Below, one piece after another: positions 5,104 through 11,844 of a DNA stretch of 64,000 bases. Within the stretch, counting starts at the first letter, position 1. Every line of letters begins with the position of its first letter. The position numbers and the translations under genes were made by a program. The notes beneath the pieces were generated by a model. The model was not told the origin of the DNA. It did not search any database and saw nothing but the letters and a program-made list of their open reading frames with translations. Origin of the DNA: an uncultured Planctomycetota bacterium. Lineage in GTDB: Bacteria; Planctomycetota; Planctomycetia; Isosphaerales; Isosphaeraceae. Location of the stretch: NCBI GenBank assembly GCA_963823665.1, contig CAWGMQ010000003.1, positions 256,001 through 320,000 of the forward strand, read 5' to 3'.

Positions 5104-6296
5104 ATGTCATCGAACGAGCGACCTCTTGAGCCTGCGACCCTGTGTGCGAGGGCGCCGGCACCGGCCCCATCGACCAGCCGGCCGCTCATTCCGCCGCTCG
5201 ACCTGAGCGTGGTGTACTGCCCGGCTGATCTTGACCACGTGGATGCGTTGAACACGGGAACGAAGGAGGGCTTCATCTATGCCCGCGACGGCCACCCCAA
5301 CGCCGCCCAGCTTGCCGAGAAGATGGCTCGTCTCGAAGGCGGCGAAGCGGGGCTCGTGTGTGCTTCGGGTATGGGTGCGATTGCCGCCGTTTTCCTGTCG
5401 CTTCTTTCGCAGAACGATCATGTGCTGGTCGCGAGTGGAATTTACGGTAAAACGACGGCACTCGTCGCCCGGCTGCTTCCCCGATGGGGTATCTCGCACG
5501 ATCTGTTCGACGCAGCCGACGTGGCATCGCTGCGATTGCGGTTGACCCCGAACACGCGTCTGGTCTTCGTGGAGACCATCTCGAACCCGTTGCTTCGGAT
5601 TGCTGACCTGGAAAGCCTGGCCGAAGTCGCCGCGAGCGCCGGAGTTCCTCTGGTGGTCGACAACACCTTCGCCCCCCTGCTCTGCCGGCCGATTGCGCGA
5701 GGCGCTGCTTGGTGGTGCATTCCGCGACCAAGATGATCGGCGGCCATAGCGATCTCACGCTCGGCGTGCTCGTCGGCCCGCGCTCCATGATCGACTCGAT
5801 CCGGACGGTGGCCTCGACGCTCGGACAGACCGGCAACCCGTTCGAAAGCTGGCTGGCCTTACGCGGGCTGGCGACGCTCTGCGTGCGGATGGAGCGCGCG
5901 AGCCGCACGGCGCTCGAGCTCGCCCGGCGCTTCGAACATCACAATCAGGTCAGTCGCACGTTCTATCCCGGCCTGGAGTCGCACCCGGAGTTCGCCCTGG
6001 CAGGGCGCTTGCTCGACGGGGGCTTTGGCGCGATGGTCACGATCGACCTGGGCAGCCGCATCCGTGCCGAGTCGTTCATCAAGAATCTGGCGTCGTCGAT
6101 CCCCTTCGCCCCCAGCCTGGGCGACGTTCAAACGACGCTGAGCCATCCTGCGACAACCAGCCACCGCGGTCAGGACGAAGCTCAACTGGCCGCGCAGGGA
6201 TTGACCGCCGGCATGGTGCGGCTTTCGGTGGGGCTCGAGGATCCGGGGGATCTGTGGTCAGAGTTTCGCGGGCCGCTGGATGGGCCTGGAAGTTGA
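5104..6296 (+). CDS. Cys/Met metabolism PLP-dependent enzyme (cystathionine gamma-synthase/lyase family), frameshift near 5700
   Basis: YARDGHPN, ASGMGAI, ETISNP, VVDNTFA, HSATKMIGGHSD (PLP lysine), SLGDVQT, VRLSVGLED across ORFs 5104..5736 and 5709..6296. Confidence 0.9.
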
Positions 6297-6976: not shown

Positions 6977-7524
6977 TCGACCTCGAAGATGCTTGGACGT
7001 GGTATGTCACGACCCGGAAGCAGCTACGACTGTTCGGCCGGCTCGGCCGGAAACATTGGGATAAGCTGCCGTGGGATGGCAAGCTCGGCGAAGACGATGC
7101 CCTGAAGAGCCTCGAGTCGGAATCGGTCGTCACCGGCTCGGCCTTCTGCTTGGAACATCTCGACGACTTCGCAGTGCTCATCCTTTTTTCCGTGTTCGAA
7201 TCCATCGTGCGGGCTCAAGTTCTCTCCGAAGTCGAAGACGAGAAGAGTCGGTTGCGCCATGCGCTCATCATTCAGATTGTGACCGACGCCACAGATGAGA
7301 TCGAGCACGGCAGTTTCCACCGCGTGCTTCGGGTGTTTAGAGGGCTCGATGCGAATCTTACCGAGGAAGTCAGTCAAGTACGAAGGTATCGCAATTGGGT
7401 GGCGCACGGACGCCGGACTGCGAAGCCGGAAGCCGTTGATCCTGAGACGGCTTTCCGACGCCTGAAGGAGTTCCTTGATGCGCTGGGGATGGGCTCGGCT
7501 AATGGCGGCACAACACATAACTGA
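6973..7524 (+). CDS. Putative HEPN-domain protein (183 aa)
   Basis: Helical protein with LILFSVFESIVR and C-terminal RRYRNWVAHG (Rx4H), the HEPN RNase signature arrangement. Confidence 0.6.
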   Translation: MIDLEDAWTWYVTTRKQLRLFGRLGRKHWDKLPWDGKLGEDDALKSLESESVVTGSAFCLEHLDDFAVLILFSVFESIVRAQVLSEVEDEKSRLRHALIIQIVTDATDEIEHGSFHRVLRVFRGLDANLTEEVSQVRRYRNWVAHGRRTAKPEAVDPETAFRRLKEFLDALGMGSANGGTTHN

Positions 7525-9021
7525 CCGCCAGCTTCACCGCGACAGCCGGGACCGGATCGGCGGGCTGTTAGAGTTTGCCTTTGCGCTCAGCGCCTCACTG
7601 CTGGCTTTTGCGGCCGTCATATCAGCGCCGGCCTCTGTGAATGGAGCCGTGTGGTTTGCGCGAGCGAAGGCATCCGGAGACGGCACGAGCCGGGCCAGCC
7701 CGATCGGCTCATCCACCGGACTCGACACCGTCACCAGACCCGGCGACATGATCATTCTACTGGCGAATGACGACCCGTTTGACGGCGGCGTGACGCTCAA
7801 AGCGGGCCAGACGCTCATCGGTCACGCGGAGGCCGGTCCCAAACCCGCGATCACGAATTCGAATGCCGAGCGCAACGGCGGCAACGGCGTCGTGCTGGCC
7901 GACGACTGCAAAGTCATCGACATACGCATCGAACGAACAAGGGCGAGCGGAGTCTTCGGACTCGATGTCTCGGGCACCTGCCTGGTCGGCGTCGACGTCG
8001 ACGGCGCCAATCAATCCGCCGGCCTCACGACAACTGAGGTGAGTCTGCTCGGGCGGATCTCGAATGCCGGCATCCTGTTCATCGCGGCTCGACCCGGAAA
8101 GGTCTCCGAGAATCGCCTCCTGCGATGCCGCGTCATGAACGCCGCCGGCATCGGTATCGGCGCCTTCGCGCTCAAGGGAGGGCAAACCCGGCTGGTTATC
8201 AGCCACAGTCGCGCCGAGGGTGGGGCCCTGATACCTCCACTGTTCGACATGGGAGTCGTGGCATTCGCCGATGGGAGGGCCTCGGAGTCCGCTCTGGAGA
8301 TCAGGGACAGCGTCGCCTCGGGCCGCATGAGCCAGCAGGGCGCAACATCCTTGCCTTCGCCGCCGCCGGAGCGAAGGCCAAGGCCCGCATCGAACGATCG
8401 GTGTCGGGTGAATCGGGCCAGGATGGCGTCATTGCTGTGGCGGCGATGGTCCCCGCCACGGTCGAGATGGAGATCCGAGACTCCACGCTCGAGAAAGCGG
8501 CCCAGATGAACCTCGAGGGGACGATCCTCGACCTACCCCCGTCTGATCCCGACCGGGCCGATCAGAGCCTTGTCTCGATCGACGTCGAAGGGAGTGTGAT
8601 CCGGGATGCCGGGTTTGTGGATGGATTTCGGGGCGAGGCCCAGAACATCTGGCTGGCGCCGTCGGTCCTTGCCGGCGGGCCATTCGCCAGGGGCCGCTAT
8701 CGTCTCGCAGTCCGCGACTCGATCGTGGAGAAGGCCCTCAAAGGCGGCATCGCCGTTGGCAACGCCGGCTCGGATTTCAAGATTGGAGCCGACGAGGGTC
8801 AGTACGAGGTCCGGCTGCGCGACAACACGATCCGGGATAACGGCACCTGCGAGATTGCCATCGCCGCGGCAATTGCCCGCGTCGACGCACGCGGGAACTT
8901 CTGGGGATCGCCATCGGGGCTCGCCAACGACCGCATCATCCTGCTCGATGCGGCGCGGCGGTCGCAGATCGATGCTTCGGAGCCGCTCGCTCGCCCAGAG
9001 GAGCGGTTGAGATCCAAGTAG
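7502..9021 (+). CDS. Secreted right-handed beta-helix-like protein (frameshift near 8340; start approximate)
   Basis: Hydrophobic signal segment, then GDGTSRASP..PGDMIIL..GGVTLKAGQTLIG and ARGNFWGSPSG; ORFs 7475..8509 and 8125..9021 join. Confidence 0.6.
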
Positions 9022-9349
9022 TGCGCGTGGCGGAGGGTGGCTCCTTGTGCCGCGCCGCAGGCTCGTGCGGTGGAGTAACTTGCAGGGACCGACAACCACG
9101 GCGAACCCGGGGGGCAACGGCACCAGCGTGTCATCTGACGTCAATTTTAGACGCTGGATCGTGGCGTACCGCAATCCCGCGAAGGTGGGATTTGACCCCA
9201 CCGAGCTCAAGCTCTCCGATAAGGCTCAGGTTCGGTAGGCGGGTTTTCGTTCACGAAGCGAGACTCAATCCCCCGATCGATTCTCGTCGCGATAACGCTC
9301 CGGTCATTCCGCATGCAGTCAGTCCTCCCCGTACCGCCGCAAGCACGCT

Positions 9350-9547
9350 GCCCCCAGCCTGGGCGACGTTCAGATGACGCTCAGCTATCCGGCGACAACC
9401 AGCCACCGCGGTCAGGACGAAGCCCAGTTGGCCGCCCAGGGATTGAGCTCCGGCATGGTGCGGCTTTCGGTAGGGCCTGAAGAGCCCGAGGATCTGTGGT
9501 CGGAGTTTCGCGGGGCGCTGGATGGGCTTGGAAGTTGAGGTTCGCGT
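9350..9547 (+). pseudogene. Displaced 3' fragment of the Cys/Met PLP-enzyme gene (direct repeat copy 2)
   Basis: Reads APSLGDVQMTLSYPATTSHRGQDEAQ..GLGS* with no upstream part; 89% identical to 6108..6305. Confidence 0.9.
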
Positions 9548-9746: not shown

Positions 9747-11285
9747 TCATTCCGCATGCCGCTGCTGTTTGGTCCCGTGCCGGCGCAGCACTTCCATGAC
9801 AGGTTCGGTCCCCCTGGTAACATCTGGGATCTTTGCGCCGGATTTGAGCAAGGTCTCGACTGTAGCGGCATAATCTCCCGTGCTTGAGTGCCAGCCGTGC
9901 TCGGAGCCGTGCATCGCCCAGCCGAGCGGCGTGCCCTGAAAGTCCGCGTCGGTGACCTCCAGCGGTGGGCTGAAGCGCAGGATGGTCTTGGCCATCGCGT
10001 CGTTGCCATGGAAGGCCGCCCAGTGCAGCGGCGTGGCCTGGTGTTGCCCCGCGCGTCCACGGGCCAGCCACACTCGAGCATGAGGCGAACGACTTCGGTC
10101 TCATTGTTGCGCGCGGCGTGCGCCACCATTCGGCGGTCGGCTTCGCTCAGACCGTCAACGACGTTTAGATTCTCGCGCCGGATCGCCAGCGCTTTTCCTC
10201 CTCGCCCATCCAGCACGCTTCGATGAGCTTGACATCGGCCGGGCTGTGCTCCTCAAGCAGTGGAAGGACATCGTCGTGGCCGAACTTCCTGGCGACTTGA
10301 TGTGGTGAGACGTACCAACCCAGCTTCCACTGATAGATCGTGCCGCCCGATTTGGGATTGACCATGGGGAAGAATTGCTCGCTGACACGCATCCGGATAC
10401 AGTCCGGATTCGCCTCGAGATGGCGGCGAGCGAGCTCCAGGTCGCCGAGCGCCGCCGCCATGAGCAAGTCGGTCTGGCAGCCGCGGGCGACCAGGTATCG
10501 GGCTACGTCGAGGCGTTCGTCCAGCATCCATTGCGCGGGAGTCGACTCGTGGTCCAGATCGCGTGTATCGATGTGAGCTCCGTGGTCGAGCAGGTATCTG
10601 GCAATCTCGACCGAGGCCGCGAAATGAAGCGGCGTCTGGCCATCGCCGCCGCGGGCATGGACAAGCTCCGGGTCAGCTTTGACCAGGTCACGAAGTCGAT
10701 CGAGCAAGCCCAGCCGCGCCGCGGCGTGAACGTCCACGGTCGCTCCGCGCTCGATCGCATAGGCCGCTAACTCGGTACTGGCCGAGTGCAGCAGCCCGAA
10801 GCCGCCCGCCCACCAGCGGCTCTTGGCGTTCAGATTCGCGCCAAAGGCCAGCAGTACATCGAGCATCTCCTTGCTGCGAACGTTGGTGATCACCGGTGAG
10901 TCAAAAGGTCCCAGCGGCTCGTCGATCTGCGCTCGCAGCACGGGGTGGGCCTCGAGTAAGCGCCAGCGCCCGCGGCATCGTCGCTTCGTATGGCCTGTGT
11001 GAATTGTTCGACGAGACGCTCCGCACCGGGCGCGAGCGACTCGACGTGGGCCTTCAGCTTGGGCCAACTGGTAAAACCATACTCACGCGCGATGACGAGC
11101 TGCGCGCCACTGAGCGTGAAGCGAAACGTCTGGATCTCGTGGACCGACGATCCCGCAAGCCGAGGATGATTGGCCTGAATACGCTCGAGCGCCTTTGGGT
11201 CTCCGGCCTTGTGAGCCTTCTTGAGGTCTTTGGCCTGATTCTTGAGCTGGTCGAGGTTGGGACGCTCTGGCAGTGGCGTTGCCAT
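9747..11285 (-). CDS. Ankyrin-repeat protein with N-terminal LPERPNLDQLKNQAK helical domain (several frameshifts)
   Basis: ORF pieces 10890..11414, 10165..11067, 9611..10216 and 9747..10073 give GQTPLHFA, ATPLHWAAFHG, GTPLGWA; SD GGAAGGAG before ATG at 11285. Confidence 0.85.
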
Positions 11286-11289
11286 CAGG

Positions 11290-11415
11290 AACACTCCTTC
11301 CGTTGATGCCTGTTGTCCGCAGTTCAGGCCGAAAGAAGGTTCGCTGCTATCAACGTATTGTCTGACGAGTGGACTCTGTCCTTCCCGCGGACCGGGCGCG
11401 CCTCGCACGCGCACG
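11290..11415 (-). promoter_or_regulatory. Candidate structured 5' leader RNA of the ankyrin gene
   Basis: On the minus strand: GUCCGCGG/CUGCGGAC, GAAGG/CCUUC, GCCUG/CAGGC, CGUUGAU/AUCAACG and a GCGCGU/GCGCGC hairpin within ~125 nt ending at the SD. Confidence 0.5.
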
Positions 11416-11844
11416 GTTCAGGATACAGGGAAATGCGGGGAACACAAATGGAGAATCTCAGGCTCAGGGGATGCAGACGTTTCTCTCGGCCTACGCAAAT
11501 GCCAGGTCTCGGCGGTGCCGGTTCAACGGGCACGTTCTCCAGAACGGTTGACGGACGGAGCTGATCGAAGACGAGTTGCGTTGGACGAAGGCGCACCACG
11601 CCTGGACTCTTGAGAGCCAGAACGTCGTCGATGGCATCAGGGCGATGTTAGATCCCGGTCAATCGCGGCTTTGCAGCGTAGTCGGTGTCTCGGGCTGGAA
11701 GGTGAAGCAAGCGCCGGTGTGGCTCGGCAGGAGCTTCGCGCTCTCGGAAGCGGTGGCCTTCCGGGCTGGCGGCGCTTTCATCGCATGTGGACCGATCGGG
11801 GACCCTTCGCGAAGCGAAGGGCGACAATGGGGACCGACGCGCGG

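Follow-up and report, generated by a model that had tools for sequence, protein, structure and literature searches.

The minus strand of the window (the whole 64,000-nt stretch of Isosphaeraceae DNA analysed here) carries a putative promoter, a structured leader RNA and a gene whose product begins with a small helical domain and continues into ankyrin repeats (Table 1). A sequence-only reading of this DNA had described a riboswitch-like leader controlling an ankyrin-repeat gene, and all of the pairings that it listed do exist on the minus strand where it had placed them. The ankyrin gene is split, with three single-base gaps relative to an intact 511-aa Isosphaeraceae orthologue (locus L007). 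At least two of the three frameshifts are probably assembly errors, because short-read contigs of low depth, identical in all other respects, have a single additional base at both 10964 and 10196; no near-identical contig spans the third place. Further genes at 5104-6296 and 7475-9021 look split across overlapping frames, which fits assembly indel errors, and 9200-9520, just downstream of the ankyrin gene, is apparently a partial duplicate of the gene at 5709-6296, whose 3' part it resembles.

The promoter is weak in the window and was missed by a consensus promoter scan, and it is consensus-like in many homologues. Homology between the L007 orthologue and the window DNA starts at 11447. A -35-like pentamer lies just upstream of the leader in 55 of 72 homologues compared with 47 of 354 background windows, and P1, the first hairpin of the leader, therefore probably marks the start of the transcript.

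Table 1. Features of the leader RNA and its gene (window coordinates; SD, Shine-Dalgarno sequence)
Feature	Position	Strand	Basis or remark
Putative sigma70-type promoter (TTGTGT, 16 nt, TATCCT)	11420..11447	-	by eye
Leader RNA, long form ('type I')	11286..11414	-	precedes gene with ATG at 11285
P1 hairpin, GCGCGU 11412-11407 / GCGCGC 11401-11396	11396..11412	-	3' strand is core strand X
P1 loop GCGAG, 5' strand of pseudoknot PK1	11402..11406	-	pairs with 11369-11365
P2, 2-3 bp, closing a 7-nt loop; GUCCGC (11392-11387) is the kissing strand	11384..11396	-	86.6% paired
Conserved AA junction and P3 hairpin GGAC-AGA-GUCC (P3 11381-11371)	11371..11383	-	compensations
Purine and CUCGU, 3' strand of PK1	11365..11370	-	alignment, RNA-first set, tree counts
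Variable linker, holding CGUUGAU (not conserved)	11343..11364	-	duplex test
Anti-Shine-Dalgarno strand (P4a 5')	11331..11342	-	cognate-duplex test, compensatory events
P4b, GCCUG 11329-11325 / CAGGC 11312-11308; terminal loop bears kissing partner GCGGAC (11320-11315)	11308..11329	-	
SD GGAAGGAG 11301-11294; GUUC 11292-11289 paired in P4a; start codon 11285-11283	11283..11301	-	
N-terminal five-helix domain, about 82 residues	11034..11285	-	AlphaFold2 pLDDT 88
Ankyrin-repeat cargo, in three further frames	9747..10962	-	Pfam Ank

Covariation in the long-form leader

Folded as a single sequence, the window leader is unremarkable (z -1.51; 14 of 200 shuffles were equally stable), and the case for it therefore rests on its homologues. 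These were gathered from two directions. The protein-first set took the 85-residue domain as query and comprises the best 80 of 520 confirmed loci; among these 80, the full leader lies directly upstream of the domain in 73, one locus keeps the leader's 3' half only, and in six the leader sits about 1 kb upstream. By their record titles the loci presumably span more than ten phyla, the phyla being assigned from names. Seventy of 76 full leaders were aligned with MAFFT, the six excluded near-duplicates being recovered later at 82-99 bits by R1, a covariance model for which the window leader was itself a training sequence (own match 11283-11414, 91.6 bits). The RNA-first set was collected by a DNA pattern that fixed both sides of neither PK1 nor the anti-SD/SD helix, and shares at least four loci with the protein-first set.

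Across the 70 aligned leaders, a structure of seven helices and 35 pairs is 89.8% paired, with changes on both sides at 23 pairs; it outscores all 500 of 500 shuffles, and slid controls reach 42-49%. The same alignment then yielded a tree on which independent compensatory events were counted, the null means being about 1 or less. PK1 has 16 independent compensations and P3 has 10, in each case a number reached in 0 of 5000 null draws, while P4a has 8, P1 has 5 (38 of 5000 draws as high) and P4b, which is 95.7% paired, has 4. The kissing helix GUCCGC/GCGGAC is 99.8% paired with 3 independent events, and Rhizobium copies have both sides altered in P4b as well as in the kissing helix. P2 is the weakest helix, its 2 independent compensations not being significant (223 of 5000 null draws as high). 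The anti-SD/SD duplex is more stable between cognate strands than in the null (-14.1 vs -9.1 kcal/mol, 0/5000). The RNA-first set gives the same picture both for this duplex (-14.1 vs -10.3 kcal/mol, 0/5000) and for PK1 (3.21 vs 2.72 bp, 0/2000). In a nested RNAalifold consensus, the GG that follows GUCCGC has as its partner the CC that follows P3; we prefer to assign this CC to PK1, because the P1 loop changes with it. The kissing strands and the junction are nearly invariant in sequence, and the spacing from PK1 to GCCUG is 31-49 nt in all 70 rows of the alignment.

Several elements of the sequence-only reading thus reappear in this structure. Its GCGCGU/GCGCGC hairpin is P1, and this hairpin, the GCCUG/CAGGC pairing and the helix joining CCUUC to the SD all covary in the 70 leaders, while of its longer stem GUCCGCGG (11392-11385) / CUGCGGAC (11322-11315) covariation supports the 6-bp core GUCCGC/GCGGAC. 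Two other pairings fared worse. The inner GAAGG (11384-11380) / CCUUC (11339-11335) is 68.9% paired, with 200 of 500 shuffles as high and 0 independent compensations, and the register adjacent to it does little better (89 of 500 shuffles as high). CGUUGAU (11355-11349) / AUCAACG (11307-11301) involves the variable linker, and its duplex is at -2.46 vs -2.35 for the null (1280 of 5000 permutations as low). The proposal that CCUUC switches between two exclusive partners is accordingly backed by comparison on the SD side and has no such backing on the internal GAAGG side, where the core constrains the internal GRAAGG and so makes the test a weak one. Among the 70 aligned leaders, no ON fold of the long form showed covariation; only the closed fold covaries. 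Absent from the earlier list of pairings were the P1-loop pseudoknot, P3 and the short P2, which makes GUCCGC a loop.

The regions upstream of domain-sharing genes, which the sequence-only reading had proposed to compare, are therefore conserved and covarying, and covariation in homologues supports its core claim of a conserved, cis-acting, SD-sequestering leader. We take the long form, on this comparative evidence, to be a genuine structured and knotted RNA that is predicted to hide its SD. In pseudoknot-free folding, all 8 SD bases of the window leader have a predicted unpaired probability of at most 0.11. With pseudoknot energies excluded, the SD-closed fold lies at -31.6 kcal/mol and is predicted to be the ground state; the ON fold of the sequence-only reading, which is open and holds the inner GAAGG/CCUUC pairing, lies 6 kcal/mol higher (-25.6 kcal/mol). 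Such a ground state would suit a leader that responds to no ligand at all, either thermometer-like or constitutively damping, which heat, stress or ribosomal protein S1 would open and to which the domain would be unrelated; the presence of proteostasis-type domains among several of the cargos fits this idea too. We regard it as very unlikely, given that the core is sequence-invariant across presumably more than ten phyla, whereas a melting hairpin needs less than that, and that the tie to the domain would be left unexplained.

An extra hairpin lies between P4b and the SD in ten long-form leaders (L102, L115, L117, L124, L134, L158, L171, L182, L186 and L192).

One domain, many cargos and several leaders

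The N-terminal domain falls into 9405 sequence clusters at E<=0.001. Almost without exception it lies at the very N-terminus, and many proteins have 2-3 copies of it. It is basic, with a positive net charge in 71 of 80 (median +4) and conserved K15, K19, R35, R67 and K78. Sequence and structure searches gave no confident match to a known RNA-binding fold or family: Foldseek with the domain model returned nothing at E<=0.001, the best structural match, VIA (Z 4.2, rmsd 3.6, 63 aligned), is not confident, ESM Atlas yielded hypothetical proteins only, and PHROGs yielded nothing convincing. A PDB sequence match, 9s82 'JUBO2' (E 0.013), was dropped, as it looks like a designed helical protein.

The link between RNA and domain is tight whether one starts from the protein, as above, or from the RNA. 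The RNA-first loci number at least 119, of which four end within 50 nt, leaving 115 assessable; among the matches listed, 113 of these have the domain directly downstream, and the two misses are one decayed domain start and one locus without the domain. In the window's own genome, three RNAs adjoin three domain genes, and five other genomes hold 9 RNAs and 10 domain genes. Among 41 relatives, the RNA occurs in 6, in up to 6 copies, and the domain in 7, the seventh being a weak partial match. Here 12 of 15 RNA matches adjoin a domain match; the other three are a decayed RNA, a weak RNA without the domain, and an RNA before a domain start of about 20 residues that is fused to globin and ankyrin. 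The RNA lacks the domain at L089, L396, L461 and L519 and precedes only its first ~20 residues at L517, and conversely no leader was detected upstream of the domain at L520, L521, L289 and L304. The domain at L521 (G331:C39:421980-422219) belongs to a more divergent subfamily, and no leader is visible in the 170 nt upstream of it.

Cargo could be assessed in the 76 of the 113 RNA-first domain loci that have enough flank, and is ankyrin in 63, DUF5655/DUF5990 in one and unassigned in 12. Selected other loci carry Clp_N, a bifunctional nuclease (BFN) domain with Clp_N, or FliG_N repeats, and VOC, globin and DUF1835 occur as well. Because 113 of 115 loci carry the domain while the cargo varies, the RNA is tied to the five-helix domain and not to ankyrin. 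The claim that the leader controls an ankyrin gene is thus true of what lies downstream at this locus but too narrow, since it is the domain and not the repeats that predicts the RNA.

The domain can also occur by itself. At six loci of one clade, the RNA is followed by an exported SnoaL-like gene and then, 20-26 nt further on, by a bare domain of about 94 residues. The variable codons of this stand-alone domain are 21 synonymous and 5 non-synonymous, consistent with purifying selection; the corresponding count for the SnoaL-like gene is 54 vs 50, on which we place no weight. Since the bare domain is kept under purifying selection in a predicted RNA-headed operon, it would seem to have a role that needs no cargo, though the case is a single evolutionary event. 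The leader of these loci has lost the P2 pairing. Upstream of the stand-alone gene, the leader's 3' arm (AGGC...GAAAGGAG) is present once more (L068-L074, 1440-1488), which suggests that a duplication of the arm brought in the SnoaL-like gene.

This arrangement bears on two other explanations. In one, the device acts in cis: the nascent domain would grip the leader of its own mRNA, so as either to restrict how often that mRNA is translated or to hold a protein-mRNA particle together. The extreme N-terminal position of the domain would then make sense, and so would the sharing of one core by paralogues of the same genome, which would cross-repress if they acted in trans. A stand-alone domain encoded in a second cistron and the 2-3 domain copies of many proteins do not sit well with it, and we think it quite unlikely. 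In the other, promoter, RNA and domain form a mobile 5' cassette that captures cargo, the RNA serving recombination or catalysis rather than regulation. The patchy distribution and multiple copies among relatives, the many cargos and the second 3'-arm copy could all be read in this way. We consider it highly improbable, as no nuclease, recombinase or reverse-transcriptase cargo appeared among the scanned proteins, and covariation in the anti-SD and pre-AUG helices suggests that translation is what is controlled. Part of the linkage of the leader to the 5' end of the gene could come from 5' cassettes being shuffled whole.

The tenth domain gene of the five-genome set is a domain-VOC fusion (HHalign probability 97.9) with a weak model match just before its start, and it belongs to a second, short form of the leader. 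A short leader occurs in 78 of 79 assessable domain-VOC loci, carried by Acidobacteria, Rhizobium, Sphingomonas and others. The AA junction and P3 element are present in 78 of 79 short-form leaders, and the kissing pair in none. A scan of metagenome and viral contigs for the core only gave 123 loci, with the domain within 200 nt at 108 of them; among the 113 that have the 3' strand of PK1, the domain is near in 105, far in 2 and absent in 4, and 2 are truncated.

The two forms differ in what core strand X does. In short leaders, its partner is the run of bases immediately preceding the AUG (cognate -7.29 vs -6.33, 0/5000), and a 5' partner for it is unsupported (4963/5000), a test that internal mismatches and a variable register may blunt. 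In long leaders the result is the opposite, with 0/5000 for the 5' partner of strand X and 265/5000 for pre-AUG pairing. The core-only scan further includes 18 short-form leaders that have no SD and keep the helix between strand X and the pre-AUG bases. A structure test on 72 distinct short leaders of 100 parsed gave 19 pairs, 93.8% paired, with 61 both-side cells (0/500 shuffles), and 2 of its 5 measures were not above shuffles. One core is thus wired in two ways, and in both the fully folded state hides the initiation site. In our view this speaks for a ligand that stabilises the fold and so serves as an OFF signal.

The distantly related Glyoxalase_8 domain comes with a different leader of its own. 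The window domain scores 17.0-17.6 bits against PF20066 (Glyoxalase_8), below the 23.7-bit cut-off, and the sequence similarity is weak, with 25 of 56 members at E<=1 (best 0.00063) and an HHalign probability of 89 over 30 columns. Homology between the domain and the N-terminal part of PF20066 is probable but not certain. A scan of 301 genomes of the phylum for PF20066 gave no signal in any of them, its controls included, and carries no weight. Like the window domain, this part (about 55 residues) is N-terminal, is joined to varied cargos (in the 20 scanned out of 80, these are Lon substrate-binding, DUF3471 or S1) and lies downstream of a knotted, SD-hiding leader; unlike in the window, that leader has a different core. 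In Alphaproteobacteria, 78 of 79 PF20066 loci carry this other conserved leader about 150 nt upstream of the start (L305, L314-L393), with a GAUAC/GUAUC stem, a kissing pair that takes three compensated forms, and an anti-SD hairpin. Model R1 does not find it, and the one locus scanned has no Rfam match. A change of RNA with a change of domain subfamily, irrespective of cargo, is what one would expect of RNA and protein partners that co-evolve. Yet another long conserved leader lies about 190 nt upstream, after a TTGACA promoter, in two sequences from two Rhizobium genomes (L302, L303) whose genes are full-length PF20066.

A putative portable feedback switch

Our preferred reading, to which we assign a probability of roughly 0.55, is that leader and domain make up a portable module for translational feedback, in which the domain binds the folded core, locks the ribosome site and so regulates a protein whose cargo is a sensor or decoy. 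The comparisons show a core made up of the helix on strand X, PK1, P2, the AA junction and P3, and this core is coupled to a helix by which the ribosome-binding site is hidden: in the long form by the kissing helix between the P2 loop and the tip of the anti-SD/SD hairpin, and in the short form by pairing of strand X with the bases just before the AUG. By binding the core of its own mRNA, the domain would stabilise the closed state and repress its own translation. The results lend indirect support to the autoregulation that the sequence-only reading had raised as a possibility. More speculatively, the cargo (ankyrin, glyoxalase/VOC, Clp-N, Lon-N, FliG-N, S1, globin or others) may sense or absorb a target, and the leader may then be freed when the protein is engaged or lost, as happens with ClpC2 at a DNA operator. 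The leader has, as a protein-bound autogenous translational operator does, a conserved 5' structure overlapping the initiation site, and, judging from spacing, RNA and candidate binding-protein gene share one predicted transcript. Counting against the feedback module are the want of a confident RNA-binding fold and of a covarying ON fold, the loci at which RNA and domain part company, and the near-invariant kissing strands and junction, which might equally be a small-molecule pocket.

This last point leads to the orphan riboswitch, in which the core would take a small molecule or an ion as ligand and the domain would either be what the regulated proteins usually begin with or itself bind the same signal. 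A conserved complex core attached to an expression platform was indeed found, as in riboswitches; the fold is a compact double pseudoknot with a near-invariant junction and an SD-hiding platform, the core sits right after the promoter, and it is reused with a different platform, as aptamers are. SAM-II and preQ1-II are SD-sequestering pseudoknot riboswitches, and the cobalamin riboswitch is of the kissing-loop kind; like these, the leader uses a pseudoknot or kissing loop to link a folded core with the blocking of the ribosome-binding site, and unlike them it has no Rfam match and no shared downstream metabolic theme. The regulated cargos belong to no common pathway. The near one-to-one tie to a non-enzymatic domain, the retention of the bare domain in the RNA's operon and the different core of the other domain subfamily also speak against a riboswitch, which we judge unlikely.

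There is also a broader reading, which we put forward tentatively and hold to be rather less than an even bet. On this view, small helical domains at the N-terminus would form a superfamily whose members have each co-evolved with a knotted leader of their own (the RNA forms number at least three). They may serve as a plug-in translational feedback switch, attached either to decoys or sensors that are copies of domains of essential proteins (Clp-N, Lon-N, S1, FliG) or to binders (ankyrin, VOC). Were this true, self-inducing sponge proteins under RNA-level control would be widespread, and one core would have been strand-swapped between two expression platforms.

The closest precedents come from two systems. 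In PMC5100602, S15/rpsO is described as having a structured leader that overlaps the initiation region, with homologous proteins paired with different RNA structures, and a title cited there names the E. coli S15 operator as a pseudoknot. The leader described here resembles this account in its position over the initiation region, in having its gene product as proposed binder and in the pairing of related domains with different RNAs; it differs in that the predicted partner is non-ribosomal, has no known primary RNA target and is a separable domain fused to unrelated cargos. Mycobacterial ClpC2, according to PMC10030653, is a partial homologue of an essential protein that represses its own gene and is released by a ligand. 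Clp-N and Lon-N cargos likewise occur in the family studied here, but ClpC2 binds a DNA promoter, whereas the operator here is a covarying RNA and cargo sensing is conjectural. By analogy, the leader-domain module would work like S15/rpsO and, if cargo sensing holds, like ClpC2, while being a member of neither.

The sequence-only reading could assign the leader to no named family, and Rfam 15 likewise gave 0 matches in the window at the gathering threshold (best E 8.5, over the leader). Seventeen long- and short-form loci had none except an unrelated tRNA, and 6 more had none. The Solibacter-1 motif (Weinberg 2010, PMC2864571; not in Rfam) was considered and set aside, being a different sequence as far as the alignment rows of its supplement go. 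Full-text literature searches returned no description of the leader, and the main texts of PMC5737381, PMC8632094 and PMC11109978 contain neither 'ankyrin' nor 'glyoxalase', though their supplements could hold the motif under another name. The leader is real, widespread and uncatalogued, with a fair chance of representing a new modular system. It is abundant, occurs in many phyla and is missing from Rfam, and its companion domain, with some 9,400 clusters, has no function assigned to it. If the domain binds this leader, RNA and protein would recognise each other as a new pair and would form a module of autoregulation that lies outside the translation machinery, and a role would follow for the N-terminal part of PF20066, whose name is a misnomer; if the leader is a riboswitch, it would be a common orphan class. 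Both readings lend themselves to direct tests, since cultured Rhizobium, Streptomyces, Amycolatopsis and Sphingomonas have copies and little is needed at minimum, a core of about 50 nt and a protein of about 90 residues.

Two BFVD entries, A0A3Q8U5R0 (73 residues) and A0A858NGP1 (57), have a high TM-score against the domain at non-significant E-values (0.89 and 2.6), and are possible phage-encoded stand-alone versions of it. In addition, a phage record flagged as unverified (OQ572412; L523:1340-1480) holds a long-form leader before a domain-DUF1835 gene. This DNA may be host chromosome instead of phage DNA, and by eye its PK1 strands look flipped, with a C-rich loop and GG after P3.
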